Notes under the pieces: model-generated | The model's database searches: none | Told to the model about the DNA's origin: nothing | Seen by the model: only the letters and a program-made list of their open reading frames with translations | Made by a program: the position numbers and the translations under genes | Origin: Pristiophorus japonicus | Lineage: Eukaryota | NCBI RefSeq assembly: GCF_044704955.1 | Contig: NC_091977.1 | Location: 74,958,001 to 75,022,000, forward strand | Reading direction: 5' to 3' | DNA length: 64,000 nt | Part shown: one piece after another, positions 11,626 to 62,809 of the stretch | Numbering within the stretch: position 1 is the first letter of the stretch | Layout: every line of letters begins with the position of its first letter

Positions 11626-14600
11626 TGTTAGGTCTTGAATAAAAAATCTGACCAGATATGTAAACTCAAAGTAATATGTGACTGTAGTCCTTTATTACAG
11701 GTTTCCAGAGTGCCTCTCCAGCCTGTGAGGTCTCCTTACATACAGGTGCTCCCAAGGGATTGTGGGATCCCTTGGGACTCCAGGGGATGAGCCCTCCGGT
11801 GGTTAAACAAGGTATTTACAGGTTTTCATACATAACAACATTCCCCCCCAAAGTCAATCGTGCAACTATTTACAACGTGAGTCTATCTGGGGCCTTCCTT
11901 TCCCTGGTTGATCGTCTCGGTGCAAATGCTGGTTTTGGTGAGTCGTTTGTTGGGCCCTCGCTGGGCTGCTGCGCAGCTGGCCTTGTCGGGCTGCTGGGTG
12001 TGGTGAGTCCTGCTGGGCTGCTTCAGGTGATGGGTTCTGCTTCGTGGTCAACCGCTGGGTCGGTTGCCACTTGTGTGTGTGTTGGGGGGTCGAAAAAGGT
12101 AGAGTCTATTGTGGGTTGTTCTGGATAGTCCGTGAATCTGAGTTTGGTTTGGTCCAAGTGTTTCCTGTAGACTAGTCCATTTGAAAGTTTGACCTGAAAC
12201 ACCCTACTCCCCTCTTTGGCCACTACAGTGCCGGGAAGCCACTTGGGACCTTGTCCATAGTTCAACACAAATACAGGATCATTAATCTCGATTTCGCGTG
12301 ACACATTTGCGCGATCATGATATGTATTCTGTTGAAGCCGCCTGCTCTCTATCTGGTCATGCAGATCAGGGTGGACTAATGAGAGTCTTGTCTTAAGTGG
12401 ACTTTTCATGAGCAGTTCAGCGGGGCGAACCGCAGTGAGCGAGTGCAGTCTTGTGCGGTAATTAAGCAGGACTCAGGATAAGCGAGTCTGCAGTGAGCCT
12501 TCAGTTACCTGCTTTAAGCCTTGCTTGATTGTTTGCACTGCTCGCTCTGCCTGACCATTGGACGCTGGTTTAAACGGGGCAGATATGACATGTTTGATCC
12601 CATTGCGGGTCATGAATTCTTTGAACTCGGCACTGGTGAAACACGGCCCATTGTCACTCACAAGGATATCAGGCAGGCTGTGCGTGGCAAATATGGCCCG
12701 CAGGCTGTCAATGGTGGCAGCGGACATGCATCCCGACATTATCTCACATTCAATCCATTTCGAGTATGCATCTACAACTACAAGGAACATTTTTCCCAAG
12801 AATGGGCCTGCATAGTCGACATGGACCCTGGACCACGGTTTGGAGGGCCAGGGCCATAAACTTAGTGGCGCCTCCCTGGGTGCATTGCTTAACTGTGAAC
12901 ATGTGTTACATTTGCGTACGCAGGACTTTAAGTCTGCATCGATACCGGGCCACCACTCTTAGGGTCTGGCTATCACTTTCATCATTACAATGCCTGGGTG
13001 GGTACTGTGGAGATCACTAATGAAAGTGTCCCTGCCCTTTTTTGGCACCACTACCCAATTACCCCATAGGAAGCAATCTGCCTGTATAGACATTTCACCT
13101 TTGCGCCGCTGGTATGGCTTTATTTCTTCCTGCATCCCTAACGGGACACTAGACCAACTCCCGAGGAGCACACAGGTTTTTAACTAAGGACAGTAAGGGG
13201 TCCTGGCTCGTCCAGGTTCTAATCTGTCGGGTGGTAACAGGTGATTGCTCACTTTCGAATGTTTCCATTACCAAAGTAAATCTGTGGGCTGTGCCATCTC
13301 CACCCCTGTGGTGGGCAATGGCAACCTACTGAGAGCATCGGCACAGTTGTCTGTGCCTTGCCTGTGGCGGATGGCATAGTTGTATGCGGACAATGTGAGC
13401 ACCCATCTCTGGATGCAGGCCGATGCATTCGTATTTATCCCCTTACTTTCAGAAACGAGGGATATAAGTGGCTTATGGTCGGTTTCCAATTCAAATTTGA
13501 GTCCAAACAGATATTGATGCATTTTCTTTACCCCATAAATATACGCTAATGCTTCTTTTTCAATCATGCTGTAGGCCCTCTCAGCCTTAGACAGACTTCT
13601 GGATGCATAAGCAACCGATTGCAATTTCCCAGATTCATTAGCTTGTTGCAATACACACCCGACACCGTATGACGATGCATCACATGCTAGTACCAAAAGC
13701 TTACATGGATCATACAACACAAGCAACTTGTTTGAGCATAACAGTTTCCTAGCTTTCTCAAAGGCATTCTCTTGGCTTTTACCCCATACCCATTCGTCTC
13801 CTTTACGCAGTAAAGAGTGCAGTGGTTCTAACAGTGTGCTAAGACTCGGTAAGGAGTTACCATAGTAGTTCAGGAGTCCTAGGAATGACCACAGCTCTGT
13901 CACGTTCTGTGGCTTCGGTGCATTCTTGATTGCCTCCGTCTTCGAATCGGTGGGCCTGATGACGTCCGCTGCGATCCTTCTCCCCAGGAACTCCACTTCA
14001 GGTGCCAAGAAAATGCACTTCGAGCATTTTAACCTGAGCCCCACACGATTAAGCCGATTAAGAACCTCCTCCAGGTTCTGCAGGTGCTCGATGGTGTCCC
14101 GACCTATAACCAAGATGTGGTCCTGGAAGACCACGGTGTGCGGGGCTGACTTCAGCAAGCTTTCCATGTTCCTCTGGAATATCACCGTGTCTGATCGAAT
14201 CCCAAATGGGCATCTGTTGTAAATGAAGAGACCTTTGTGCATGTTGATGCAGATGAGGCCCTTCGATGATTCCTCTAACTCCTGCGTCATGTAGGCCGAG
14301 GTCAAGTCCAGCTTCGTGAATGTTTTTCCTCCCGCCAACGTCGCAAATAGGTCGTCTGCCTTTGGTAGCAGGTATTGATCCTGCAGGGAGAAACGATTGA
14401 TAGTTACTTTATAATCATCACAGAATCAGAAGGTGCCGTTTTCCTTGAGGACTGGGACAATCAGTCTGACCCACTCGTTGAATTCGATCGGCGAAATGAT
14501 GCTCTCTCATTGCAGCCGGTCCAGCTTGATCTCCACCCTCTCTCTCATCATGTAAGGTACCACTCTGGCCTTGTGATGGATGGGTCGTGCCCTCGGAATC

Positions 14601-28959: not shown

Positions 28960-31900
28960 TTGCCTTCGGTCACCTGAGGAAGAGAGTATTTGAAGATCAG
29001 GACCTCAAACCTGACACCAAGCTCATAGTCTACAGAGCAGTGGTGATACCTGCCCTACTATATGGCTCAGAGACATGGACTATTACAGCAGGCACCTCAA
29101 AGCATGAGAGAAGTAACACTGGTGCTGCCTCCACAAGGTCCTGCAAATCCATTGGCAGGATAGGTACACCAACGTCAGTGTCCTCGCTCAGGCCAACATC
29201 CCCAGCATCGAAGCACGGACCATGCTCAATCAGCTCTGCTGGATGGGGCACATTGTCCATGTTATATATGCAGACTATAGATATACTGTCTGTGTAGTCA
29301 CTGTATAGTTGCATAAGATGGAGACGTGTTACCTAATGTACTATCAATAAGGTTTACACTGTGTATATACTATGCTGGCACCACTAGAGGGTGCAACTGG
29401 TGGAGACTGGGGTTTCCTTCCCCTGTGACAGAGGCTGTCCACCAGTGGGCATTATAGTGGGAGACCTGAGGGTCACCTGCAAAGGTGTGCAGGGTCCAAT
29501 ATAAAATGCTGCCCACCATGCTTGTGTCTCACTCTGGAGTTACGAATAAAGGACCAAGGTCACTACAGTTTGACTACAACACATTGCCTCGTGGACTCAT
29601 TCATAAGTCATAACAACTGGCAACGAGAATACGGACTTTCATGCGATTATGGCTAACTTTGGCGCACTAAAAGACTTCAGAGGGTGACAATTGGGATGCC
29701 TTCACGGAAAGGCTCGAGCAATATTTCGTGGCAAATGACTTGGCAGGGGAGACGGACACATTGGCGGAGAAGCGCAAGGCTATACTGCTGACCAGTTGTG
29801 GGCCCTAGGTCTACCGCCTTGTCAGGGATTTGCTGGCACCCACGAATGCCAAGGATAAGACATACGATGAGCTGACTGAACTAATTCGCGACCAACTAAA
29901 ACCAAAACAGAGCATCCTCACGGCCAGGCACAGATTCTACACTCACCACAGATCTGAGGGCCAGGAGCTTGCAAAATATGTTGCCGATCTCAGGAGACTT
30001 GTGGCACCATGTGATTTCAGCACACACCTCAACGAAGCATTGTGAGACATTTTCATTATAGGAATTGGCCACGAGGGCCTGCTTCACAAGCTATTATCTG
30101 CCGACACCACAGTCAACCTGCAGAAGGCCATCAGCATCAGTCAGGCGTTCATGACCTCGACCTGCAGCACCAAGCAAATTATTCATCCTGTGGACTCAAA
30201 CTCAGTAAGTACTGTACACAGAATGGTGCCTTTCACAGGCAAGACTGTAGAATGTGGCTCTGCCCAGGACAGAGAGCAAGACCTCAGGGTTCCAGAACTC
30301 AGAGTCCACCGAGGGGTGCTAATCGATTAGCACCATGCTGGCATTGCAGAGGAAACCTTAGGGCTGACCAGTGTCCGTTTCCTGAGTACATATGCACAGC
30401 CTGTAACACGAAGGGCCACCTCCAACGTGTGTAAAAGAAATACGATTCACTGTCTAGCAGAGGAGTCAGTAGATGACTTTGAATCCAGCGGGGAGTATGA
30501 TGATTTGGTCAGAGAGGCAGCTCAGCCCCAAGAAGAAGTGTATGGAATGTATACCTGCACCACTGATTGTCCTCCAGTGAAGATGGAAGTCGAGATAAAC
30601 GGCGTTCCTGTCTTCATGGAAGTGGACACAGGAGCGAGCCAGTCAGTGATGAGCCAGGATGCCTTTGAGAGGCTATGGAACGAAAAATGAGTCGAGCTGG
30701 TTCGAGTACAGGAAAAGCTGCGCACCTACACCAAGGAGCTGATCCCAGTCCTTGGTAGTGCGAATGTAAGTGTAATCCATAATGGCGTGGTGCGCAAGTT
30801 ACCTCTGTGGATTGTTGCAGGTGATGGTCCAACGCTACTCAGAAGAAGGTGGATGGGGAAAATCCAGTGGAAATGGGAAGACCTCTTCACTCCAGCAATC
30901 GATGTCCCCCATGCTCAGAGGCAGAGCAAAACCTCACCTTCACTTGGGCCAGGCACCAGAGAACAGACCAGCATAGCACCTGAAGCACAGACCATCCATC
31001 ATGACTGCGTGGCAATGATCCGACCAGAACGACCTAAAAGTACCTTCCCGGCTCCAGTGGCAGGACTCCTGGGGAGGAAGATCGAATGCACAGGCACTCT
31101 TCCAGCTTTTGTGGCAGAATCGCGGGAGAGAAGGATCAAGGCAGTCGACCTCAAGGACAGAGGCAAGATGATGTTTCTGCTGCAGCGAGGTGCAGGGTGG
31201 CTGAAAAAAAAGATGGCCACAGCCATATCACGAGGTGTAACGCTGAGGGACCAACACGTGGTGTCTAACAAAGAATTTGATTGGGGTAAAGCCAGCAGGG
31301 TTCTCTTAAAGGAGACCTGCAACCAACTGAACTTAAAGAGACATTGTGTGCATGGCAATCAATGTAACGAACCGATTAAGATTGTAAACAAAATATTGTT
31401 GCGAGATGTCGGGAATAGAGTGTCCCCAAAAGTACCAAGCGAGCGAATTCTGGAGGGTAAAGGCGCTGATCCTGTCCCAGGTGTCCCCAGAAGTTATAGG
31501 CCAGCAACCTCAGGAGGGTGAAGGCACTGATCCTGATACCCTGCCCCAGGTCTGTCCCAGGCTGCAGGCAACCGATGGCACTATTGCCACGGACCTGGAA
31601 ACGAAAATGGCGCCAATACACACAGTCGGCCGCCGTTGCCCACCACCCGGGTGGAGACGGCACAGCCCCCAGACCCAGTCGTTATCTCGGCCATGTCTGG
31701 GAGTGAAAGGTCAGAACCAATGAATTCCCGAAACGGGACCTGGAACAGCCAGGTTTCCAACACCATTAGAGAGCAGGCAGAAGATTCTGCAGCCCTCAAA
31801 GGAGGACAGGGAGGCCACAATCTGCCCACCACTAGGCAGCGGCAAAGACCCTGAGTCCTGGCAATGTGTGCGAACTAAGCCCAACCCGCTAGCAGGGGGC

Positions 31901-34055: not shown

Positions 34056-36386
34056 CTGAATGCCCACAGCGCTTGCTCTGTCCTCCAGGTCTCCATAACC
34101 AGTGCCTGTGAAGAGACACTTGGTTAATCAACCAGAAAACCCCAGGACTGGTTTGATGAAAATGATCTAGAGATCCAAGAACTAATAGATCGTAAACACA
34201 GAGTATTTCTGAGTCTCAAGTAACAACCCAACTCGGGAGCTGCAAAGCAACGTTACAGACGGCTCAAGGCTGAGGTCCAACAAAAAACCCGGGACCTAAA
34301 GAACAGGTGGTGGATGGAGAAATCACAGGAGATACAACAACAGGCTAACAGCCACGATATGCAAGGATTCTTCACCGCAGTCAAGGCCACATATGGTCCA
34401 AACTCCCAAGGCCCCACCCCACTCCTGGCCAAGAACGGGGAAACATTCATCAAGGACACCGAGGCTGTCAGGGCCCGCTGGAAGGAGCACTTTGAAGATC
34501 TCATCAATCGAGACTCTGCCTTTGACTCGAGTGTTCTCGACTCCATCCCGCAGCATGCGACCCCCCCCCCCCCAACCACCTCAGTGAAACCCCAACGCTG
34601 CACGAGGTAGGCAAAGCCATAAAACAGTTTAAGAATAACAAGGCTACGGGTGTGGATGGAATTTCTGATGAGGTGCTAATGTATGGCGGAGATGCGTTGT
34701 CCGTGCGGATACATGACTTCATCTCTCTCATTTGGAGGGAGGAGAGCATGCCGGGAGATCTCAGAGATGCAGTGAATGTCACCATCTTTAAAAAGAGGAA
34801 CAAGTCCGACTGCGGCAACTACAGGGGAATCTCCCTGCTATCAGCCACTGGGAACGTTGTCGCTAGAGTTCTCATCAACCGTCTTCTCCCTGTGGCCGAG
34901 GAGTTCCTCCCGGAATCACAGTGCGGATTTTGTCCCCTATGGGGCACAACGGACATGATCGTTGCAGCGCGACAGCTGCAGGAAAAATGCAGGGAGCAGC
35001 GCCAGCCCTTATATCTGGCATTTTTCGATCTTACAGAAGCCTTTGACACTGTCAACCGTGAGGGGTTATGGAGCGTCCTCCTCTGTTTTGGATGCCTCCA
35101 AAAGTTTGTCAACATCCTTTGCCTGCTCCACGATGACATGTTGGCTGTGATCCTTACCAGCGGTACCATTACAGACCTAATCCACATCCGGACTGGGGTC
35201 AAACAGGGCTGCGTCATTGCTCCAACCGTCTTCTCAATCTTCCTCGCTGCCATGCTCCACCTCACAGTCAACAAGCTCCCCGCTGGATTGGAACTAAACT
35301 ACAGAACCAGCGGGATGTTGTTTAACCTCTGCTGCCTCCAGGTCAGGTCCAAGATCACCCCAACCTCTGTCGTTGAGCTGCAGTATGCAGACGATGCTTG
35401 CGTCTGCGCACATTCTGAGGCTGAACTCCAGAATATAGTTGATGTATTCACCGAGGCATATGAAAACATGGGCCTTAAGCTTAACATCTGTAAGACAAAG
35501 GTCCTCCACCGGCCTGTTCTCGCCGCACAGCACTGCCCCCCAGTCGTCAAGATCCATGGCGCGACCCTCCATAACGTGGACCACTTCCCATACCTCGCGA
35601 GCCTTTTATCAACAAAGGCAGACATTGATGCGGAGATTCAACATCGCTTCCAGTGCGCCAGTGCAGTCTTTGGCCGCCTGAGGAAAAGAGTGTTTGAAGA
35701 CCAGGCCCTCAAATCTACCACCAAGCTGTAGTAATACCCGCCCTCCTGTACGGATCAGAGGCATGGACGATGTACAGAAGACACTTCAAGTCGCTGGAAA
35801 TATTTCACCAATGATGTCTCCGCAAGACCCTGCAGATCCCCTGGGAGGACAGGCGCACCAACATCAGTGTCCTCGCCCAGGCTAACATCCCCGGCATTGA
35901 AGCACTGACCACATTCGATCAGCTTCGTTGGGCAGGCCACATAGTTCGCATGCCAGACACGAGGCTTCCTAAGCAATTGCTCTATGCGGAGCTCCTTCAT
36001 GGCAAACAAGCCAAAGGTGAGCAACGGAAATGTTACAAGGACACCCTCAAAGCCTCCCTGGTAAAGTGCGACATCACCACTGACACCTGGGAGTCCCTGG
36101 CCGAAGACAGCCCTAGGTGGAGAAACTGCATCCGGGAGGGCGCTGAGCTCTTCGAATCTTCACGTTGCGAGTGTGAAGAGGTCAGGCAGCGGAAGGAGCG
36201 TGCGGCAAATCAGTCCCACCCCACCCTTCCCCCGACGAATGTCTGTCCTACTTGTAACAGGGTCTGTGGCTCTCGCATTGGACTGTTCAGCCATCAAAGG
36301 ACTCACTTTAGGAGTGGAAACAAGTCTTCCTCGATTCCGAGGGACTGCCTATGATGATGATGATGATTATGATGATGATGATGATG
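34056..36386 (+). mobile_element. 5'-truncated RTE LINE
   Basis: 359 aa RT ORF at 34652-35731 (NYRGISLLS, GVKQGCV, QYADD), C-terminal CPTC..C..H..H finger and a long (GAT)n tail at 36351-36386. Confidence 0.95.
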
Positions 36387-45164: not shown

Positions 45165-48100
45165 GGGCTAGATTTTCCACTATTTTTGCGTCGATACCGC
45201 CCACTTAACGTCCATTTTAACACTGAGATGAGGTATAATTCCCAGACATCGGCCATTTAGGCACAAAATGGAAAATAACGCCCACTTATCGAATATCGGC
45301 CAGCGTTACTTTCGGCATGTAATTAACGCCGAGATTTAATAATTCCGCCCAGCCACTTTTTTTTGTGTAAAGTTCACATTTGCCGAAACTAACGCCCAGA
45401 AATCGCCCAGTGTTACTTTCAACACCCCACACACATCTCACCGACAATATCGCTCGCCGAAAAAACCGCTGTGAAAATGTTGCTCTCACTTGAACTAAAA
45501 TGGATGCCATTTTCTAAATCGCAGTTCGCATCATTTAAAAGGTTGCTTCAACTTCGGGGGAGTTTAGATGTACTCTGGAGTTCTTTTCAGGTGATGTGAA
45601 CATCTGAACAAACATCTTATCATACTGTGGAGAATTGGAATTTACTTTAGGTGTCTTAGCGGGAACATTTATTGTTTGTGAACAATCGGTGTATTACTGA
45701 TAGTTATTGGAATGGGGCCTGTCCTTTCTCAGCCTGTCTTGATGAGTACGCACATGCTGCAGACTAGAGATAGCAGAAGATATATTCGGCAGCATTATGT
45801 GCCCAATCTAAGATGTGCCAGACTGATGAGGAGGACCAGACCTTACAGGGAGGAGCAGTCTTACTTCAACATGTCCGATAACACCTGCCTTAGGAGACAG
45901 TGCTTCCACAATGAGGTTTTCAGTGAGATATGCCAGCTCATCAGGGGAGATCTGCAGCCTGCCACCAGTGTTCCTGGCAATCACCTCCAGGGCCTCCGCC
46001 ATCCGCGGCACGTTCTCCGTCATGGTGGCGGACATGCTGACCAGCTGTTATCCCCCATTGTCTGTAGGATCTGCTGACCTATGTCAATACTCCTCCTGGA
46101 CAAGCCTACCATGTCCCCGCTCAGATCTGCCACTTGTGGAGCAGACCTGCTGCGTCGAACCAACTCTGCTTATCCTGGAGAAACCTCGGGTGCCCTGTGG
46201 CAAGGTGCTTGGGTTCGGTACCTCCTCAGTGGAGGTGGGAATGGCCGCAGTAGCACTCGATATCTTTGGTGCGGACTGCATTATGGAGCTTGGCGATGCA
46301 GGCTCCTCAAAATCGGCACTATTATCCATGGAGAAGGGACCCAGCAGATCCATGGGTGAGAATCGGGGCTCCTCAGCACCAGATGGAGGATCGTCCGATG
46401 AGTCCGGCCCTACGCCCCCACCTGCTGGGCTCAGTGGTCTTGCATGGGGCCGTGCTGCTGGCTGAGCTGCAAAACGTAAATGAGGTTAGAAACATAGAAA
46501 CATAGAAAATAGGAGCAGGAGTAGGCCATTCAGCCCTTCGAGCCTGCACCACCATTCAATGAGTTCGTGGCTGAATATGCAACTTCAGTACCCCATTCCT
46601 GCTTTCTCGCCATACCCCTTGATCCCCCTAGTAGTAAGGACTACATCTAACTCCTTTTTGAATATATTCAGTGAATTGTCAACAACTTTCTGTGGTAGAG
46701 AATTCCACAGGTTCACCACTCTCTGGGTGAAGAAGTTTCTCCTTATCTCGGTCCTAAATGGCTTACCCCTTATCCTTAGACTGTGACCCCTGGTTCTGGA
46801 CTTCCCCAACATTGGGAACATTCTTCCTGCATCTAACCTGTCTAAACCTGTCAGCATTTTAAACGTTTCTATGAGATCCCCTCTCATTCTTCTGAACTCC
46901 AGTGAATACAAGCCCAGTTGATCCAGTCTTTCTTGATATGTCAGTCCCGCCATCCTGGGAATCAGTCTGGTGAACCTTCGCTGCACTCCCTCAATAGCAA
47001 GAATGTCCTTCCTCAAGTTGGGAGACCAAAACTGTACACAATACTCCAGGTGTGGCCTCACCAAGGCCCTGTACAACTGTAGTAACACCTCCCTGCCCCT
47101 GTACTCAAATCCTCTCGCTATGAAGGCCAACATGCCATTTGCTTTCTTAACCGCCTGCTGTACCTGCATGCCTACCTTCAATGACTGATGTACCATGACA
47201 CCCAGGTCTCGTTGCACCTCCCCTTTTCCTAATCTGTTACCATTCAGATAATAGTCTGTCTCTCTGTTTTTGCCACCAAAGTGGATAACCTCACATTTAT
47301 CTACATTATACTGCATCTGCCATTCATTTGTCCACTCACCTAACCTATCCAAGTCACTCTACAGCATCAGAGTATCCTCCTCGCAGCTCACACTGCCACC
47401 CAACTTAGTGTCATCCGCAAATTTGGAGATACTACATTTAATCCTCTCGTCTAAATCATTAATGTACAATGAAAACAGCTGGGGCCCCAGCACAGAACCT
47501 TGCAGTACCCCACTAGTCACTGCCTGCCATTCTGAAAAGTCCCCATTTACTCCTACTCTTTGCTTTCTGTCTGCCAACCAGTTCTCAATCCACATCAGCA
47601 CACTACCCCCAATGCCATGTGTTTTAACTTTGCACGTTAATCTCTTGTGTGGGACCTTGTCGAAAGCCTTCTGAAAGTCCAAATACACCACATCAACTGG
47701 TTCTCCCTTGTCCGCTCTACTGGAAACATCCTCAAAAAATTTCAGAAGATTTGTCAAGCATGATTTCCCTTTCACAAATCCATGCTGACTTGGACCTATC
47801 ATGTCATCTCTTTCCAAATGTGCTGTTATGACATCCTTAATAATTGACTCCATCATTTTACCCACTACCGATGTCAGGCTGACTGGTCTATAATTCCCTG
47901 TTTTCTCTCTCCCTCCTTTTTTAAAAAGTGCAGTTACATTGGCGACCCTCCACTCCATAGGAACTGATCCAGAGTCTATGGAATGTTGGAAAATGACTGT
48001 CAATGCATCTGCTATTTTCAAGGCCACCTCCTTAAGTACTCTGGGATGCAGACCATCATTCCCTGGGGTTTTATCGACCTTCAATCCCATCAATTTCCCC

Positions 48101-50089
48101 AACATAATTTCCCGACTAATAAGGATTTCCCTCAGTTCCTCCTTCTTACTGGATCCTCTGACCCCTTTTATATCCGGAAGGTTGCTTGTGTCCTCCTTAG
48201 TGAATACCGAACCAACGTATTTGTTCAATTGGTCTGCCATTTCTTTGTTCCCCATTATGACTTCCCCTGATTCCGACTGCAGGGGACCTATGTTTGTCTT
48301 TACTAACCTTTTTCTCTTTAATATCTATAGAAGCTTTTGCAGTCCGTCTTAATGTTCCCTGCAAGCTTCCTCTCGTACTCTATTTTCCCTGCCCTAATCA
48401 AACCCTTTGTCCTCCTCTGCTGAGTTTTAAATTTCTCCCAGTTCCCGGGTTCACTGCTATTTCTGGCCAATTTGTATGCCACTTCCTTGGCTTTAATACT
48501 ATCCCTGATTTCCCTTGATAGCCACGGTTGAGCCACCTTCCTTTTTTTATTTTTCCACCAGACAGGGATGTACAATTGTTGTAGTTCATCCATGCGGTAT
48601 CTAAATGTCTGCCATTGCCCATCCACTGTTATTAGAGGAGAAGGGGGTGCCAGGATCACAAGATGATTCCAGCGCTACATGCAACATATGCACGACAGAA
48701 GCACCACCACTATCAAAATCATCACAGACATGACATTTCATGACCATCACCAAATTCTGCATTGCAATGATTCTCATAAGGCCATCATTATTTAGAGAAC
48801 ACTTTTATCATTCATCTATCATATATTATTGGTCAGATATGAGTGGGTGTGGCATCTATTGAATTTACATCACGTAATGGTGTATACACATGGCATCACA
48901 TCAGGTTCTGCAGCTGCTTGCCTGGCCAACCTGGGGTGGCTCCCACTAGTGCCAGCACCCACTCCTCAATGTCGGTGAGCTCGCTGATGACTGGTAGCCC
49001 GCCACCCATTTGCCTCTGCTCGGCCCTATTCTTTGAAAGCTTCTTCTGTAAAAGGTAACACCAGTACGACATGGCATGAGATCAGTGCGTGAGATCATTG
49101 CTAGGTACAGTCACAGAGACTGATACAACACATAACCAACAGATGTAATCATGATTATAATTAAAATTATCATTCTTTACCAAAAGAGGTACACCGTGAA
49201 AACAGGCTTTGAGTAAAACATTCCCGGTATAAGTGCAAGACATCACATCTGATTTTAATCACTTATGGCACTTACAATTCAAATTATATAAATATATAAG
49301 TGCATGTAAATAAATGTAATACTTACTCTGGCAGATCCGACAAGGTCATTCCAGCACTTGCGGCACTGGTTGCCCTCACGCACCTCATTGGTTGCCAACA
49401 AAACCACCTGAGCTATATCGGCCCATATCCTCTGGTAGACCTTTGGGGTGGGCTTCCCATGCTCACCCTGGGTCAATTGACCCCAGCACGACTTGACCTC
49501 CTGCAGGAGGGAGGCAGTTGCCTCGTCCGAGAATCTCACTCTTTTTCATCCTCCCAATTGTTCCTCTCCCACCTCACTGCTTTCACCAGCGTCAGTCTCC
49601 GCAGCATGCTGTGTCGCCTTCTCCATCCCTACCATTGTAAAAAAAAATGTCCACAAAAAATTCGGTGGGAACAACGTTATTTGTGCTCTGAATTCTTTTT
49701 GCTGCTGGAAATTCTTCCTCCTACCTCCCAAAACAGCCAAACAAGCATACACCACACCCACACACGCTTTCAGTTCCTCTCTGCTCCCCCTCTCTCTCTC
49801 TCTCTCCTCTTCCGCGCATGTAATGATGACACCTGACCTTCTGAAATGTGGGAAACGACTGTTGCCATGCCGTTGCTATGGACACCGACACTTTACGGCA
49901 GAGGCTCCAAAATTTTAATGCTAATGCCCATTTCTGATCGCTCGCGGTAACGCCCATTTTATAAAATGGAAAGTTGGGGTTTTGAAAATGGGCGATAATC
50001 CAGCGATCTGAAAAAACCCATATTTACCGCCAACGCTGGAAATAATGCCCATTTTTAGGCGATCTGTACAAAAGTCGAAAGTCTAGCCC
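45165..50089. mobile_element. Internally deleted PIF/Harbinger transposon
   Basis: TIRs GGGCTAGATTTTC / GAAAGTCTAGCCC. Transposase N-terminus on + (45712-45965; SYFNMSDNTCLRR..EICQLIRGDLQP). Myb/SANT exons on - at 49325-49540 (RFSDEA..W..QCRKCWNDL), ~48900-49050 and 45965-46470. Confidence 0.85.
46489..48630 (-). mobile_element. 5'-truncated young CR1, same family as 6321-10075
   Basis: ORFs 46585-47352, 47359-48255 and 48318-48659 are nearly identical to the 6414-8954 proteins, with the same tail. Confidence 0.95.
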
Positions 50090-52262: not shown

Positions 52263-54732
52263 TAAATCATGACTGTCGGGTAAAAGCATTATTAATGCAT
52301 TAATGAAAGCTAACCTAAGATGTATCAGTCAATTTGTTGCAAATAATATAAACTTTGGAATTACTGGTGAATAAAAAGGTTAATTGTTTAGCATATGAAA
52401 GGTGTATCATTAGTATATGTACCAGTAATATACCTCAATATAATTCATGACCTTGAACGTAAGGATTTGTATCATGTTTTCTTATAGACTTAACAGCACT
52501 AAAACAGGTATTATTTAGCGTAATGTGTTTTGACAAAACAAGTAAAAATAGAGCCAGAGCACGATTCACCATGCTCACATAGCACAACTGCGAATTAGTG
52601 CAACCCGAGGGAACTAGGAGAGCTTGCGATTTATGCAGCTGTGTGGTTGATTTCAGCTGACCGAGTTTTCTTATTTCTAGGTCAAACTGACATGTGGCAC
52701 CAATACGGGAGTGAAAGGAGCAAAAGGCCCAAGCAAGTGCAAGTATCTAATGGAATTACAAACCCCTTGTTTGCAGGGGGAAATCAGCACACAGAACTCT
52801 GACTCAGTTGAATTTTTAGGCATTTGCAAATTTATAACCCCATAAAAATCCTTTAGTTGCTAAAAGCATTTTAAAATAATCATGATGTATTAAATAATTT
52901 TAATTGTCTCTAAAAATATTGGTACCCATCATTAGTTCTTTCTCGGCCAGCACAGACACGATGGGCCAAATAGCCTCTTTTTCTGCCATAAATTTCTATG
53001 ATTCTATGATTAAGCATTTTAATCTCTTTGAATGAACACATAGCTTACAATAAAAACACTTTTCAGCAGTTATTTATGATTTTTCAAATATTTTGTGGTG
53101 AACAAACTGGAGAGAATGTCAAAAAATTATAATGATTATTTTCCTACCTGATGGTAATTCTTATAATTCCTATAATTCTCTTTATGATGGTAATAATGAC
53201 TGTCACGATGAAAAATTAGAATTAGAATTCTACAAATGTATGCAGGACTGTTTAGCATGATTTGTGTACTAAAATTATATCATTTTGTTTTGTGTTTGGA
53301 TTTACCAAGTACTGGTTGCTGAGGTGTGGCATCCCACATAGCAAAGCTCTGTATTGCAATATCGGCAAGCGATGTAGAAGCAAGTTCCTGATCTGCACTG
53401 GTGGGGCACGTAAATTGACAAGAAAGTCTATTTATCGTTCCCAAATGTGCTCAGCACATTATGCAATATCACTGCGCATCGGGGTGTTACCAAACTGCAT
53501 GGAAGCACCAATATTGATGACCTGATTGAAGCAGATGCATATGCTCCTCCAGCAGGCTCTAGGATAATTGGGCTATAGAAAGTCCACCATCTGCCTGAAT
53601 TGGGACCCTGAGCTGGTTTGTATTCAGAGAGAGCTTTGTTAATAATTAATCCGCCTGTAAAGGGTTTTCCCACTACTCAGCTTCAGAGTGTAGATATTAG
53701 GATAAGTTTGCACATGCTATACTCCTAGCTGAGAGCCATGCTCAAAAGAAGCACGAGTCAGAGAATTAGCTCGACAGGGTTTGAGCGCAGATCCCCTCTG
53801 GAAACATGGAATTGGTGATGTTCCCTGGATGATGTACATCTTCAGGAGACTGATTGTGGTTTCGGCCCATCTCTCATTTAACAATTTACCGACATCTTTT
53901 TCTTCATCACTGTCCTTTTGTGACATAGCTGTAGCCACCAGCCCAAAGTCAGTGGCAGGAGGCCGGAACCAATTTTAGGTTCAGGTCTCATTTGAATTGA
54001 TCTAGCGAGTTGCAGGTGCTCAATGGACGCTCCTCTGCAATTTGCCACTTCTATATAGCTGAGGGGGCAGGCATGAAGGGGCCAGCAGCAAGCTGCTGCA
54101 GTTTTCTCCCCAAATATTTATTTATTTTGTTTTTGGAGTGGCCTCCAGCGATCATTTTAAGGGCTGCTGCTGGAGCCACTTATTGCCTGGCACTTGTGTG
54201 CACAATGCATGCATCACCTTTTTGTTCATGAACATGGCAGTTCGAGTCCAACAACCAGTGTAGGATCCCGGTTTGCATATTAAAATAGTTTGTTTAAATA
54301 GCCGCTAATCAGGCAGAACTTGGGTATCAAAGGGATGTCCTAGATGCCCATTCAATTTCCCCTGTGATAGTTGAAAATTGTCTCAATTGATATTGTGCCC
54401 AAAAAGGTATCTTTGTGTAATTTTTCAATATTTTTTTCAATGGAATGAATAGTTCGGCTTCTGCAAAATGTGGTCACATTTTGAGTTTAGTCTGCGCCAT
54501 CTTTATCCATCCACTACCCCCCATCCAGTTATATGATGTCAATCTACGAGTAATCATTAGAATACATTACATATTTAAGCCATTCCATTCTCACCTGGTG
54601 AAATGTTCGATTTAAATAATTCCATCTAAAATCTTATCGGTATTAAATTGGTAGGTAGTGATGCTATAACATTCCTTATCTGAGCAGTTGGATGTGTGAA
54701 GTACTAAAATGCCTCAATTTACATAAAGCAGG

Positions 54733-55352
54733 TGTAAGGGTCGAAAATCCAGTGCTACACAAAAAAAAAGGCACCCGGTAACAAGGAAACAAAGCATGGG
54801 ATCATTCCATACACCCTTTTAATGGAACTTTGGCCAAGGCAAACCGCAGGAAGAAAGGCAGCTGGGAAATATGTCTGTGGCCAGACACTATGTGAATTCG
54901 GGGGCCACAGGCAGGCTGAGAAGCCAGCCAATCCCGGGAAAGTGCATCCTGGGCCGGCCAATCAGTGAATTGAGCTGGGCCAGAAACAGGGAAATCCTCG
55001 ACCAATAGGGAATACTCGGCCCATTTTGTAAAGGACAGCTTACCTGGATCTAATCAAGGAGAAGGGCCCATCACCAGCCCATTACCCATGTACATAAAGA
55101 CAATAGGAGAGGCCAACACCTCGGTGCACCCCGATCCTGACACAATAGCCAGCCAGACTATCAGGTCTCAAATATATCACTAAGCTTTAATTGGGTATAA
55201 GCAGCCTCAGACATATTGGTGGTATCAAACATATCACTAAGCTGTAATTGGGTATAAGCAGAAAAGGGGTCCACTGGTGATAGCAACTCAAATCACCATA
55301 GTCTGAAGGTTGCGTCCGGTCACAAGCAACAGTAGAAGGAAAAACCCCTACA
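54733..55352 (+). repeat. 5' LTR (620 bp, ~1 kb internal deletion)
   Basis: Matches 61050-61483, then jumps at ~55165 to the equivalent of ~62507-62691. Confidence 0.93.
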
Positions 55353-55357
55353 ACTAA

Positions 55358-55375
55358 TGGCGAGCCAGCCAGGAG
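55358..55375 (+). promoter_or_regulatory. Primer binding site, tRNA-Arg(ACG)
   Basis: TGGCGAGCCAGCCAGGAG is the reverse complement of the vertebrate tRNA-Arg(ACG) 3' end CTCCTGGCTGGCTCGCCA (tRNA sequence recalled from memory). It lies 5 nt after the LTR. Confidence 0.85.
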
Positions 55376-56119
55376 CTCAGTGGGAGAATGAGCTGACCAG
55401 CTCAGAGAAGGTGATCCTGGAACATTCCAAAATGGAGGAAAGAATGAAAGATTATGTGTTTTCTAAAGTTAATTTTTCTAAGGCTTGGGTTCAAAGCCTG
55501 ACTAGGGCGCCGCGTCCAGCAGACGTGGTGGCCCAGTGGACTGCGGGCCCAACCTATAGCAAGAATATAGAGAAGACTATCTGGCTAATCTGCTTGACAA
55601 GGCAGGTTAGAGAGCTAGACCTCCAGGTAGGGAGGTTACAGGATGAACTCAAGGAAGCAGTGATAACCTCAGCAGCCAGCAGTGCAGCGGGCACCCAGGT
55701 CACAGAGGAGCTTATAGCAGAAAGGAACAGGAGAGCACAATTGGAGGAGACTTTCTGTAACCACCAGGAGTACCTGCAGAGTCAGGTTACAGTGTCTCGG
55801 TCTGCAGAGCAGAAACATAGGGAATGAAGTATAACCTATGCGAAGCAAGTACAGGAACTGCAAGGCCAGCTAGAGGATTTGTGTGTTGCCTATAAAGTCA
55901 ACATGGAAATCAGCCGTGAGAAGGCAGAACATGCATCCTGCCAGAAATGGATCCAATCCCTCCTCCAGGCTCTGTCCTAGGTAAAGGGGACAGTGTGTCT
56001 GCTGGGGCCCAGGGGGTCTGCCAATGAATGGGGAGTGGAGGAGGATCCAACGGCAGAAGCCAGTTGACTGCCTTCCGAGGCGCCGGTAATGTGTCCGGCA
56101 GGCTTCAGGGAGGAACAGA

Positions 56120-56280
56120 GGGTGCAGTCCACGAAGCCCACAGGGCATGGGACCGATCAGGGAGAGTCGGTCCAGCCAAAAGGGCATGGGGCCGGCCAGG
56201 GAGAGTCAGTCCAGCCAAAAGGGCATGGGGCCGGCCAGTTGGAGCCGACCCAGACAAAGGGGTATGGGACACCCATAGAA
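56120..56280 (+). repeat. 39 bp coding tandem repeat in gag, about 4 copies
   Basis: QGESVQPKGHGAG units (GTCCAGCCAAAAGGGCATGGGGCCGGCCAG..). Confidence 0.85.
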
Positions 56281-57285
56281 AGGGTCGAGTCTGTCAGTTT
56301 GATCACGGCTGAAGAACAAGGGGAGCCAGTAGTAACATCCGCAGTGGGACCGATGTGCCCGGCTGTGCAGAGAAAATACGGCCCCCCCACAGGGTGCACA
56401 ACTCCAGGGACCGCTCGACAGCGAGTTTATTATCCCGCATGGGGTGCAAGCCCTAAAGGCTATGGTATCGCCCATCCCCAAGCTGACTAGGCAAGGAGAC
56501 CCGTACGCCCATTTCCTGGAAGTAGCGCAGGCAGTAGACCTCAATGCCTGCGATAATGCAGAAGCAGTTAAAGTGCTCTTATTCTCAATAGATGGAAGAA
56601 TCTATCAGGCTCTTCCCCCTGTTTGTCGAGGGGGATGCTGTACCTTGGAGGCTCTGAAAAGGGCCATCCTGGAAGCTGTGGGGTGGAACGAGGGAAGCCC
56701 TTTCGAAAGGATAGCAAAGACCCGTCAGCTAACCGGAGAGGCCCCACAGATCTATGTAGACAGGCTGTGGCTGATGAATAGCACAGTAGAGCAGAGGGAG
56801 GCCTGGTTTCGCACCATAATCGCGAACAGCCTGCCCAGTGTAAAGGAAAGGGCAGACCTCTGGTTTATCCCTGCAGACCCCAACCTCACCGAGGACATCA
56901 TGATAGGCAGACTGACCGCCACACGGCGGATGGAGGAGGAGGAGAAGCCTGAAAAACCCATAAAGGGTCGGGTGCACACGGTGCAACCCAACCAAACCCC
57001 AAGAAAGAGTGGCATCAGGAAGGGGGATATCCTTCCCATAAGAGGGGCGTATGTTACGGGTGCGGCAAGCCGGGCCATTTCCACAACAACTGCCGGCCCA
57101 ACCCGTACCGCACCAAGGAAGTGAAAACACCCCCGGAGGGGAACCCAGGCGGCGAGAAACCCGGGGCCACCGCAGCATTCGAGACTGCGGTGGAAACCCT
57201 CAGGCAGCTGCTGGCAGGTTCCGGCCGGGTGAACATAGCTGTAGGCAGGGAGATCCCAACAGCTCCCCGACAGCAGAAACTGTGA

Positions 57286-58089
57286 CTAGGCCCCACCAAG
57301 CCCACCTACCTGTGTCCGCTGGACTACGACTCGTGGGGAAGACCATGGGTAAAGATGGAGGTGGAGGGGAGCCAGGGTAATTACCTGTTGGACACGGGGG
57401 CTTCAAGCCCACTTGTCCACACAGAGGACCCGGCCTCCTCACCCCTGTTTAACGGTGTACCCTACGAATTGGTCGGCTTCACAGGAGACGAGAGGCCAGG
57501 AAAAAGGAAGGCTTCCACAGGTAAAGAAACCCCACAGGAGACAGAGGACATTCCGGTGGATGTGGAGGCTATAACTGAGGTCAACCCCGGCCCCGAAGCC
57601 CCACAACCCGGAATAGTCCACTGCCACAGTAAGACCATCACACAGCAGAGTGAAGTGGCACAGCCTGCTAGGCAGGAAAGGGACTTAGCACAGGAGAAGG
57701 GAGTCCTGTGCAGTATAACGACAGGGCAGGTAGAGGAAGGGATAAACCAGTGGGAGGACCAAGGGGTGCAGCCCGTAACACGGGACTCCGTGCCCCTGGT
57801 TAGGCGTAGTTCCAGAGTGGGGCAGTCTAGGATGCCTTGGTCCCCTGCATAGCTTCCCGCCCGTCCCAAAGTCAGACGAGAAAAGAAGCACAAGAGTGGC
57901 CGACTCTGTGCGGTAAAAGGAACACCACCGAAAGACCCGGGAAAGATCCCAGATACTGAAGGGCTCACAGAAATAGAAGCAGGACATTTAAAAGAAGTCC
58001 TCCTGCAAGCCCTACAAAAGGGGACAGTCCGGCTCCTGGGGCAAGGTCAGCAAGATGGCCAACCAAGCCAAGTCAGTATCAGAGACTGA
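57286..58089 (+). pseudogene. pro: Aspartic protease N-terminal half fused to a presumed pol C-terminal tail; RT, RNaseH and IN absent
   Basis: In frame with gag: YDSWGRPWVKMEVEG..YLLDTGAS..LVGFTG. Then a low-complexity tail with PLVRRSSRV, a stop at 57850 and further open frame to 58089. No YxDD or DDE motifs. Confidence 0.8.
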
Positions 58090-58250
58090 CCTGGCCACCC
58101 GGAGACGGGTGGCATTGTATAGCCCGGTGTTCTGTATATAGTTTAGGGAGATTTTAAAGTGAGGTGATGGTGTTTTTATTTTGTGATATTACTCCAGTCG
58201 AGCCTGAAGAAGTCTTAGGCAAGACTGTGTTCAATCTTGTGTTCCAGAAG

Positions 58251-60566
58251 ATGCTCCGGACCGTCGCGATGTTATTTACCTACCTGGGGACCTGCACCGG
58301 ACAGAAACTCGACATCGAGACGTCTTTGACATATGGGTGCTCCGGGGGCAGGGCGCCAATTGTGACCATGGGAGAAGGGATCATGGAGGCAGTAGGCCAG
58401 GCCACCTACTGCCACAAGGGAGATGGCCTGGGTGGTTGGGTTCGAATTCCACCCGGTATTTGAGCCATGAGAGTTTTACCTATGTGGAGGCCTCCATCCC
58501 TTACCCCGAAATCGAGATGGCCACATCCCGGGTTAGGATGACAGGGAAGGAGAGTGTGTTTAACGTGTGTTGGGGACATATCTTTGGGACGCAGGTGGTG
58601 GCTCAGGAAACTGAGCGCGGACATCGAGGACAGCAGCTCAGATTGGGAACGTCTGAGCAATGACACCTACCGAACGATCACGGGGTCACCGGGGGGGGGG
58701 GGGGGTCATTGTGTGTTGGGAGAAATGGTGGGCCTATGATCAGGAGATCTATACCTGCTTATGGGGATCAGCCCGAATATGCCCAGCTGGGCTGTCAATT
58801 GCTTTTGCCTGATAGTGGAAGGACTCGGGGAAGGGGATGGAATGGCATCGCAGCAGGGAAGACTGTGTGCTCCCTCACTTCCGGGTACCAGTAAACGCCA
58901 CCGAGCTGCTGGCTCAGGTGCAGAAACCCCTGCCCATACCCAAGCCCATTGACAGTCATGGATATCCGTCCACCACTAGGGGACCTGGGAATGGGTTAGT
59001 GTTAGTACCAACAGATAAGTTAATATACCAGGGAGTACATTATGCAGTTGCTTCAGGAATTCTAAACCTGACAGAAGTTCACCTACCTGCTTTCTGCCCC
59101 AGAGAAACCAAGTTGTTGTATCAAGCTCTACTGAAGGAAATGTTCAGGAGCTTTTACAAGCTGGACTTTGGGGACATCAATGTAGCAGACTTGTACAGGC
59201 AGGAAGACATCACCGAACGAGGCAGACAACGCAGGGGTGTCATGAACGACGTTTTTACGGGGATCAACACTGGGGCCTCTGTCATGAACAGCCTGGACGA
59301 GGTGCAGCTGGCCCTACAGATCAATGGGTTAAAATCACAGCTGCACAGCATCCTTGGCAAAGGGAACCACGTATTGGGTTCCTAACTGTATGAGGGGGTA
59401 GCTATGATGGTACACCTTAAAGAAATCATTACCCAGATAGAGAATCATACCCGAACCATAAACGCCCTGATCAGGGAGGACCGGCTGGCCTCCGATCAAG
59501 CTGCGCAGAATGAGGTGTGTGTACTCTATGGGGCCTGGTTGCTGGGAGAGGGACGGAGTAACTTGGAGGACCTTAGGCAAGGTCGGGTCCCCTCCTGGAT
59601 CAGTAACAGGCACCTGGGGGCACTACACCCCTATAGCAGCACCCTCAGCCCCTGTCAACTCCGGGTAGCGTCCGAGGCCTACCCTGTCCAGGTTGACTGC
59701 GGGAAATCTAACCACACCATCATGGGCATAGTCGTGTGGATGCCAAACCAGCACCCCTGTACCATGTGGAAAACATAGGAATCATTCGAGGGGGGGTGCA
59801 CGTCCGTTTCGCAATGGTCCCACCCTATTTCATTATGTGGGAACACGCAATGACAGGGACAGACTTAGCTGGTTGCTGTAGCCGGGGAGCACAGGTCATC
59901 CTGTGTCCCCAGCACTTGAACGCCTTTGGGAGGCCACAGTGCGGGTTTAGCACTGCTGGGGCAGAACCTATAAATTGCACAATGGAGGTGATGGCACCTG
60001 GCTATGTACCTCCACAGATAGCATATGTAGGTGGTGGGACATATTGTGTCGCCACGGCTGCCCACCGGTATAGACACGGCCCGAGTGAGTGGTGTGATAT
60101 TCCGGACAACAGTTTTTGCTTTAAACCCAGGGCGGAAGTTCAAGTGGCCCAGGAAAGGATCATTCCAATCCCAGAACCCTCCACAATTCACCTCACGGTA
60201 CAATACAACGCGAGTGACCTGCAGAAGTACGCTGTCCCTTTTGGTTATCTTATAACATTACTCCCTGAGAAACTCACCGCCTTGTTGAAGGCAGTGGAAC
60301 TCAGCCAAAAGCATTATTACACTCTGGAACAAAGGACAAAGAGTATAGCCCTCGAGATTGCAAACATACAGTCACCAGCATGGTGGGACTGGGGTACCCG
60401 GGTGGATATCCCTGTTTGGCTCCGTGTGGCCTCCCACACACTGGTTATTGCACAGTTAATTATTGTCCTGTACCTTCTAGCCAGCGCTTGTAAATCTAAG
60501 CAGGCTCAGAGGGCACAGGGCTATTCCGTAATGTTCCAGAGACAGCAGCAAGACAGCCTCGTCTGA
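58251..60566 (+). pseudogene. env: env: class I F-type fusion glycoprotein with stops and frameshifts
   Basis: Acceptor-like TTGTGTTCCAG (to 58247) precedes ATG 58251 and signal-like MLRTVAMLFTYLGTCTG. Furin site RGRQRR ends at 59235, followed by a fusion-peptide-like GVMNDVFTGINTGASVMNS, a heptad helix, a Cys-rich domain, WWDW, a TM VASHTLVIAQLIIVLYLLA and a short tail. N-glycosylation sequons NAT, NLT, NHT, NCT, NAS. Confidence 0.85.
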
Positions 60567-60592
60567 TCATTAAGAACGCCCTTTGTTTCCAG

Positions 60593-60811
60593 GTGTTCTT
60601 CCCTTTTTCAGAAACAAAGAAGGACACTCTGGCTGCCGTAACATCCCGAGAAGTCGCACCCGGAGACGGACCAACCCAGTCAACTATCCCAGGCATGAAG
60701 CACATCATGGACTCGCATACCATGGATATTCTCTGTGCAGTAACTATGTGTGTTGGTGTGCTGTACTGTTTTGAAACTTGGTGCAAGAAGCGCAAGAAAC
60801 ACGTGACATAG
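60593..60811 (+). CDS. Putative small accessory membrane protein or exon between env and the 3' LTR
   Basis: Open frame ending ILCAVTMCVGVLYCFETWCKKRKKHVT*, preceded by pyrimidine-rich acceptors (AG at 60591-2 and 60610-1). Confidence 0.4.
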   Translation: MFFPFSETKKDTLAAVTSREVAPGDGPTQSTIPGMKHIMDSHTMDILCAVTMCVGVLYCFETWCKKRKKHVT

Positions 60812-61037
60812 TGTGATTTTGGGTTTGAAAGCTCTATGTAACTAAAACAAAGAGGTACCTGTTTTGTAATTTACCTGCAAGAAAGTGGGGTTAATGTACA
60901 TAGTAAGAACGTTGTTTGTGCACCTGGGAGTAAACGGGCCCATAGTCGAGGATAATTAATGGGGAAGACTGACAATTTGCAGACCCTAGGGATTTCTTAC
61001 AATCCTTTGACACATTCCGTTTATTTCCGGATCTGTC

Positions 61038-61049
61038 AAGATGGGGGAG
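61038..61049 (+). promoter_or_regulatory. Polypurine tract
   Basis: AAGATGGGGGAG lies immediately before the 3' LTR TG. Confidence 0.85.
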
Positions 61050-62691
61050 TGTAAGGGTCGAAAATCCAGTGCTACACAAAAAAAAAGGCACCCGGTAACA
61101 AGGAAACAGAGCATGGGATCATTCCATACACCCTTTTAATCGAACTTTGGCCAAGGCAAACTGCAGGAAGAAAGGCAGGCTGGGAAATATGTCTGTGGCC
61201 AGACACTATGTGAATTCGGGGGCCACAGGCAGGCTGAGAAGCCAGCCAATCCCGGGAAAGTGCATCCTGGGCCGGCCTTTCAGTGAATCGAGCCAGGCCA
61301 GAAGCAGGGAAATCCTCGACCAATAGGGAATACTTGGCCCATTTTGTAAAGGACAGCTTACCTGGATCTAATCAAGGAGAATGGCCCATCACCAGCCCAT
61401 TACCCATGTACATAAAGACAATAGGAGAGGCCAACACCTCAGTGCATCCCGACCCTGACACAATAGCCAGCCAGACTATCAGGCACCGAGGTGCACAAGA
61501 AACAATGCTTTACCTTAACACCTCATCCCCACCTCGACTCAAACAATGAGACACTGATTCAGTTTGGGCGCGAAAAGGGCCGGAACCGAACCGGGTATAA
61601 AAGTGAGAGTTGGCAGCACTTGAAGAACACAGACAAGGGGACCTGACGACACCACAAAGGAAGAGAGAGGGACTCAGCCTCGCAAAAGAACGAGCCAGGC
61701 TAAAGAACTTCGGAGCGGCCAAAGACAACTACCACCAGCGGACCTAGACTCCATCCGTGTGCTGACCCAGCGACCGAAAACCAAGGAAGAGGAAAAAAGG
61801 GGCCCAACCTTGCCCTAAGCAACCGAGCCGCACACCAGGACCGCGCTCCGAGACCCACCGACTGGACAACCGATGACCGAGGTGACCGGGGGAGGCAACA
61901 TTCACCCCAGTCCACAATGACAACTCACCCGGCCGAAAAGAAACACAACTGCGAGCCCATACAACCTCCAAGGATAACTGGAGCAAATCCGATTTAAGGT
62001 GGGACCCACTATAACCGTCAAAGGAAACTGTGAGTATCACCCTGGAGTCTTCTCCCAACTGTCAGCTTAGGCTAATTAGGTGTAAAGGAGGGGCTGGGTG
62101 ATAGAGTGGGTATAAGGATTTTAAACATGTGTAGAATTTCATTGTGTCCATTCCTCCCATAAACCTTTTTTTCCTTAGTTCAAAGTGGTTCAACAAGCCA
62201 GTGTGTCGACCTTGTATTTCACTTGGTCCACACTTTGGGGGCTCGCACCAATTTTATTATGTGTGTATTAGTTTTGTGTTTTCTTTAGCAACTTAACCTT
62301 GTTTAAACGCTCACCTGGGTTTTAATAAAGTAGGACTTACCTGACTTTTCCAGGAACATTTCTTGTCTTTTGCATCTCTGAGTGTTTTATTGTGGGAAGC
62401 TCATTATCCACCTAAATTCTGAGGTCAGAACTTGATAGGGGTGCAGCACGCCTCAAAACATCAAGGTTGCAATTGGGTATTAGCAACCTTAGTCCTATTG
62501 GTGGTATCAAATATATCACTAAGCTGTAATTGGGTATAAGCAGCCTCAGACATATTGGTGGTATCAAGCATATCACTAAGCTGTAATTGGGTATAAGCAG
62601 AAAAGGGGTCCACCGGTGATAGCAATTCAAATCACCATAGTCTGAAGGTTGCGTCCGGTCACAAGCAGCAGTAGAAGGAAAAACCCCTACA
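61050..62691 (+). repeat. 3' LTR (1642 bp)
   Basis: TG..CA termini, CCAAT boxes, TATAAAA at 61596-61602, AATAAA at 62324-62329, and 57 bp tandem repeats at ~62470-62600. Confidence 0.93.
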
Positions 62692-62809
62692 CAGGGCCTG
62701 GAATTTCCGCACATCTGCTCCAATTGCACTGCAACAATATCCAGTAACGTTACAGTGGTAGAGCATGAGCAACGTTGAGGAAATTCACAGCCAGGAAATC
62801 ACACACAAT

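Follow-up and report, generated by a model that had tools for sequence, protein, structure and literature searches.

Readthrough of a stop that separates gag from pol is an old theme among retroelements, and both a UGA at this position in fish and frog retroviruses and a TGA-CT(A/G) in fission yeast are already known. UGA stands at the gag-pol junction of SSSV, ZFERV, and RMEV (PMC13517186). In these viruses, as in the gammaretroviruses, the epsilonretroviruses, and the element described here, an in-frame stop lies between the zinc knuckle and the protease DTG motif, but the contexts in those groups are UGAAGA, UGACGA, UGAAGU, or UAG-G, whereas ours is UGACUA (PMC13517186). Gammaretrovirus readthrough requires a pseudoknot; a type II readthrough site, by contrast, is defined by a UGACUA or UGACGG hexamer, and downstream structure is only conditionally required for UGACUA (PMC13517186). 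Alphaviruses and the human type II UGA-CUAG genes share the UGACUA(G) core with our junction and are not retroelements. In a 2026 review, UGACUA is assigned to PSIV as well as to alphaviruses, and the retroviruses treated there have contexts of other kinds.

The closest described junctions in retroelements are those of the fission-yeast Ty3/gypsy elements Tj1, Tosmo1-3, and Tcry1, in which TGA-CT(A/G) is conserved and removal of the Tj1 stop abolished activity (PMC10085805, PMC4600332). As in our element, gag and pol of these elements are in one frame split by a TGA, which has been read as programmed readthrough. Unlike our element, they are fungal and self-primed, with no env described in the portions of these sources available to us, and the codon before the stop is a conserved GAA rather than CTG.

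In overall layout, the nearest vertebrate comparison is with the lokiretroviruses, which are characterized by their RT grouping, a tether plus RNase H, an smc-like coiled coil before a Ty3/MuLV-like capsid, and a paramyxovirus F-related Env (PF00523) with an RXKR-type site. None of six chondrichthyan genomes was positive for lokiretroviruses, and the word readthrough is absent from the available text and supplement of the report that describes them (PMC7947760). The mode of Pol expression in lokiretroviruses and their relatives was not addressed in the literature that we searched.

The gag-pol junction

We analyzed a window of 64,000 nucleotides from Pristiophorus japonicus (contig NC_091977.1). 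The codons CAG CAG AAA CTG TGA CTA GGC CCC ACC AAG occupy positions 57271-57300 of this window, with the gag stop TGA at 57283-57285 and TGA-CTAG-GC at 57283-57291. The features on either side are as follows.

57052-57093, + strand: CCHC zinc knuckle CYGCGKPGHFHNNC (Pfam zf-CCHC, E = 0.025, under the curated cutoff)
57283-57291, + strand: gag stop and candidate readthrough context TGA CTA GGC, read from the letters; the heptamer is the same in the family contig
57286-57492, + strand: N-terminal half of an aspartyl protease (Pfam RVP profile positions 2-54 of 101), ending at residue 69

The protease motif LLDTGAS is encoded at 57385-57405 (Pfam RVP, E = 0.019, under the cutoff), and both it and the knuckle are plain despite Pfam E values of about 0.02. 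The stretch from knuckle to LLDTGAS is a single frame in which the TGA is the sole stop, 63 codons 3' of the knuckle and 35 codons 5' of the aspartate of LLDTGAS. An in-frame UGA-CUAG between these motifs had been claimed in the initial annotation, and letters, frame, and the lack of a second stop proved exactly as described. The junction thus carries the UGACUA hexamer of a type II readthrough site with pol in frame downstream. The same annotation had contrasted the junction with the UAG of gamma- and epsilonretroviruses; this contrast stands for the context, as UAG-G is absent here and UGA-CUAG is present, but not for the stop codon itself, as SSSV, ZFERV, and RMEV already have a junction UGA.

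What makes TGACTAG notable is its position and frame. Its abundance was dropped as evidence: the window holds 11 copies, where 7.4 ± 2.9 would be expected. Elsewhere in the element, 3 of 1475 codon positions have CTAG in frame (0.2%), and CTA follows none of the seven other in-frame stops listed for it; the TGA at 56065, presumably a decay stop, is followed by CTG and so is also TGA-CT. Frameshift bypass at the junction was rejected, because pol is in frame with gag and no XXXYYYZ slippery heptamer occurs in 57000-57420.

An 8-kb env-carrying LTR element with an internal pol deletion

The junction lies in an 8-kb LTR element with env that spans 54733-62691 and is flanked by 4-bp CAGG duplications. 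Its remaining parts are listed here.

54729-54732, + strand: left target-site duplication CAGG, with four identical bases after the 3' LTR
54733-55352, + strand: 5' LTR (TGTAA...TACA), ~1 kb shorter than the 3' LTR
55357-56067, + strand: N-terminal part of gag with coiled-coil-like heptads (crude heptad count; weak match to Pfam PF24922, E = 0.017)
55358-55375, + strand: primer-binding site, separated from the LTR by 5 nt, in which 18 of 18 bases pair with the tRNA-Arg(ACG) 3' end
56462-56995 (approximate bounds), + strand: capsid-like region of gag (Atlas neighbors Retrotrans_gag, Ty3_capsid, and zf-CCHC; score 0.95, recognition 3419)
57493-57500, + strand: join of an internal pol deletion, 8 nt shared by the two sides
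57493-58089, + strand: pol tail after the integrase C-terminal motif, with a private decay stop at 57850-57852
58167-60566 (start approximate), + strand: env remnant, with RQRR at 59224-59235, disrupted by frameshifts as well as a stop at 59383
61038-61049, + strand: polypurine tract
61050-62691, + strand: 3' LTR of 1642 nt, with the right copy of the CAGG duplication next to it at 62692-62695

Compared with the two ends of the 3' LTR, the 5' LTR shows identities of 96.6% (435 nt) and 96.8% (189 nt), and the ~1 kb missing from it corresponds to 61484-62502. That segment of the 3' LTR includes AATAAA-like signals and, near 61597, a TATA-like box, so this copy is probably without a 5' promoter. 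The tRNA-Arg(ACG) sequence used for the primer-site match was taken from PMC7757669.

Within gag, the N-terminal part has in-frame stops at 55825, 55978, and 56065, and frameshifts near 56382 and 56996 put the capsid-like region, whose Atlas neighbors are Ty3/gypsy-type Gag, out of frame with its surroundings. A predicted structure model of gag had a pLDDT of 43.5, too low to support a fold search. Three to four head-to-tail 45-nt repeats (…PKGHGAGQGESVQ…) lie at 56128-56270, between the coiled coil and the capsid.

The Pfam protease match stops at 57492, the very point at which family contigs part from the window on either side: contigs from sequencing runs X3 and X5 fit from 57493 with different sequence before it, and a contig from run X6 departs at 57500. 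This divergence on both sides indicates the loss of RT, RNase H, the remainder of protease, and most of integrase, and to the right of the join the family contigs encode in frame an INQxK-like motif that by eye resembles an integrase end. This copy cannot make a working Pol, because RT, RNase H, and most of integrase are absent. The join keeps the frame and has 8 nt in common between its sides, as template switching during reverse transcription would leave.

The env remnant comprises a heptad region, a Cys-rich part, and a hydrophobic segment towards its end. Loose contig ends at 58338 in all four runs compared, and at 58380 as well in X5 and X6, suggest that the 5' part of env has been rearranged further in this copy.

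The stop and its context are kept in the close subfamily

A single copy with this many lesions could have acquired one more stop by decay, and the initial annotation had pointed to a sense codon (CGA or TGG) in other copies as the sign of such an origin. We compared contigs from four of seven sequencing runs with window 55300-58400; X1 and X3 come from a single sample, rare variants are lost from contigs, and their depth does not give a copy number. In this sample, the best of those compared, one contig per run bridges the junction at ~98% identity to the window. The X1 contig (record 7; 57124-57408, depth 143.4) has 5 mismatches to the window in 285 bases, and the X3 contig (record 13; 57124-57373, depth 51.9) likewise has five. 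The differing sites are 57235, 57269, 57279, 57304, and 57345, and none falls within 57283-57289, so that the high-depth family contig has no sense codon in place of the stop, a result that applies to the close subfamily.

Contigs of a second subfamily, about 83-87% identical to the window, span the junction with no gaps (42 of 254 letters differ in X3 record 14 and 32 of 255 in X5 record 21). At four of the five differing sites a divergent X3 contig departs from the window as well, so the changes there appear to be private to this copy and the bridging contig would represent the family majority. The distance of 1.75% is about half of the LTR-LTR divergence, as would be expected for an aged copy compared with its family majority. 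As controls, every contig covering the stop at 57850-57852 has another letter there in all four runs, and family contigs vary in length at both gag frameshifts. Thus, stop and context are retained across copies of the close, ~98%-identical subfamily in one sample. In judging whether an element of this kind is intact or dead, TGA 57283-57285 should not count as decay.

The same junction in lokiretrovirus consensus sequences

We searched the text of Dataset S1 in the supplement of PMC7947760, which holds 24 lokiretrovirus consensus sequences. An in-frame TGA-CTA(G/A) closes gag in at least 7 of the 24, as line breaks in the text can hide matches and the junctions of Loki-Lca, -Rca, and -Bpe are outside this count. 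TGACTAG had 17 matches in the supplement, four of them at gag ends (Loki-Ofa, -Cne, -Pyo, and -Sau), and gag ends in TGA-CTA-A in Loki-Bsp, -Dcl, and -Lro; the gag end of Loki-Tfu is TGN-CTA-A, with an ambiguous base (PMC7947760). In all seven, as read from the printed text, the codons after TGA continue in frame to pol, and the Loki-Bsp consensus loses the frame later, ahead of the protease motif (PMC7947760). Six of seven separately annotated gag genes end in TGA-CTA and the seventh is ambiguous; no gag record for -Cne was seen in the supplement as available.

About ten other consensus sequences are labelled as a single gag-pol frame, which fits expression of Pol as a fusion; Loki-Pma is open through gag-pol, and Loki-Aro, -Lch, and -Ape start at or within pol (PMC7947760). 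In the Loki-Npa polyprotein the gag-pol boundary, after ...NPFLG..., is marked by a '?', and that of Loki-Xla reads ...EDFF... in a comparable position (PMC7947760). Amphibian lokiretroviruses may frameshift at this boundary.

The seven TGA-CTA(G/A) junctions of teleost lokiretroviruses, which their describers leave undiscussed, stand whether or not the window element belongs to the lokiretroviruses. Lokiretroviruses have a coiled coil ahead of a Ty3-like capsid (PMC7947760), and the window element has coiled-coil-like heptads, by a crude count, ahead of its capsid-like region; both have an env with a furin-type site, RQRR in the window, and a similar Cys-rich layout by eye. Loki-Sri shares the 5-nt gap between LTR and primer site (PMC7947760), and the INQxK-like motif that precedes the pol tail in family contigs resembles the lokiretrovirus integrase ends WVHINQ[IL]. 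By contrast, our element has a CCHC knuckle, whereas by our own reading, which is not the criterion of the authors, the lokiretrovirus Gag ends displayed have none; a glycine-rich patch has been described in Bik-1 Gag. The primer also differs, being tRNA-Arg here, as does the stop-to-DTG distance (35 codons here and about 65 or more in lokiretroviruses). As this kinship is a likeness judged by eye, the shared junction may be parallel rather than homologous.

Probable programmed readthrough and its alternatives

Programmed readthrough of the UGA at 57283-57285 is the best reading of these data, with a probability of roughly 0.8. TGA 57283-57285 would be both the natural gag end of the family and a programmed leaky stop. 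Most ribosomes would terminate there and release Gag; in a minority, a near-cognate tRNA, with the help of the CUAG(GC) context and perhaps of a stem further downstream, would decode the UGA, presumably inserting an amino acid and continuing into in-frame protease, RT, RNase H, and integrase. Such a presumptive readthrough level would set the ratio of Gag to Gag-Pol. Position and frame of the stop, its retention in the close subfamily, and the matching junction of published lokiretroviruses, from which we infer this scheme, are direct observations. In this copy, the readthrough product would be half a protease joined to the pol tail. The initial annotation had ascribed Gag-Pol to UGA suppression, a proposal strengthened by the kept heptamer and by the junction of seven lokiretroviruses, but one that applies to the family and not to this pol-less locus.

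UGA-CUAG is the best-known leaky context in vertebrate cells, and human genes with UGACUAG show readthrough of about 1.3% or more (PMC13517186). The junction nonamer UGACUAGGC is also the motif of OPRL1 (PMC13517186). Effects of positions outside -3 to +4 carry over poorly between genes (10.64898/2026.07.14.738498, PMC13517186), so the level of readthrough here is not predictable.

Were the TGA simply the natural end of gag, Pol would be made separately, from a spliced mRNA, by use of an internal promoter, or through translation that starts with the AUG at 57355. Foamy viruses make Pol from a spliced pol mRNA. The AUG at 57355 is in frame, with A at -3 and G at +4, and Tca2 offers a precedent for a promoter, as its gag-UGA-pol junction contains a minor promoter and its flanks alone directed no readthrough in an S. 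cerevisiae reporter (PMC2194720). However, this AUG sits 7 codons into the Pfam protease match, and its use would remove the protease start; no T-rich acceptor precedes an AG in 57200-57360; and separate synthesis leaves unexplained both the in-frame pol and the CTA after TGA in seven lokiretrovirus sequences. We consider separate expression of Pol, the main rival, unlikely.

We give still less weight to a TGA that arose as nonsense in a defective founder and was then copied in a non-autonomous subfamily whose ancestor had a single open gag-pol frame. The TGA is seen to be retained only in a roughly 98%-identical subfamily, this copy is itself defective, and many lokiretroviruses are labelled single frame (PMC7947760), all of which such an origin would accommodate. 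It requires, however, that a chance stop fell within the 98 codons between knuckle and DTG and in a context found at 0.2% of codon positions, and the remaining breaks, where a check was possible, are private changes of this copy. A nonsense mutation of this single copy, in line with its several further in-frame stops and frameshifts, is largely refuted and very improbable, as the high-depth family contig keeps the same seven bases and differs at five nearby sites.

Downstream RNA structure

The initial annotation had called for a stimulatory stem to be sought in the 100 nt after the stop, and folding there was no better than in shuffled sequences (z = -0.77; -1.69 for 150 nt); values of -2.5 and -3.4 appeared only in windows picked post hoc. 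The structure predicted for this region is the following.

57303-57363, + strand: predicted branched stem-loop that starts 18 nt 3' of the stop, with pair probabilities of 0.94-1.0 in the outer stem and second hairpin

An Rfam search gave no match above chance.

Affinity of the element and novelty of the junction

The element may be a neighbor lineage of the lokiretroviruses or belong to an env-carrying Ty3/gypsy group. A 2026 survey, in the part available to us, reports no intact vertebrate homologues of invertebrate errantiviruses. The env remnant, lokiretrovirus-like by eye, had no Pfam match and no convincing PDB match, and its predicted structure model had a pLDDT of 33.7, again too low for searching by fold; its Atlas neighbors point weakly to chuvirus/rhabdovirus-type proteins (recognition 1772, under the guide value of 2300). 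Protein searches found no relatives of the protease part among 36 candidates and none of the capsid part among 642, and viral contigs gave no match for protease or env. Five weak protein matches to the protease part were set aside, three being repeat proteins and two resembling bacterial aspartyl proteases; a 17-residue capsid match within an unrelated 577-aa frame of a viral contig was rejected; and the sole metagenome match to the junction pattern (L001), which is bacterial and gave no blastn match to the window, was rejected as well.

In vertebrate elements that carry env, the UGA-CUA context appears to be new. The open-access literature, searched without Repbase, yielded no publication that describes a UGA-CUA junction for retrovirus-like elements of vertebrates. 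In a keyword check, readthrough was absent from PMC9040795, PMC8922424, PMC13524379 (with preprint), PMC5210030, PMC5512871, and 10.1101/2024.03.25.586437, and had one unrelated use in PMC12440569. A conserved junction of this type would add the alphavirus and cellular type of readthrough to vertebrate retrovirus-like elements, and it offers a cheap and direct test of Pol expression in lokiretroviruses and their relatives. More tentatively, and with the odds against it, the element could represent an undescribed env-carrying, knuckle-bearing LTR lineage of cartilaginous fish beside the lokiretroviruses, and UGA-CUA readthrough could be ancient, shared from shark to bony fish in the sister group of retroviruses and overlooked in print.

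Over 154 residues, the C-terminal part of env shares 59% identity with the beginning of the P. japonicus (sawshark) gene model P0006, annotated as 'cadherin-related family member 5-like', whose residues 1-150 correspond to env of this element family (window 59982-60443). The gene model is probably mis-joined with env; capture of env sequence as an exon is the alternative. Other retroelement remnants in the window lie at 13268-14425 (- strand), 30691-31521 (+ strand), 6414-8966 (- strand), 46585-48324 (- strand), and 34526-35731 (+ strand), which we take to be an RT/RNase H frame of gypsy-like type, a fragment resembling a protease, and several RT frames of LINE-like type.
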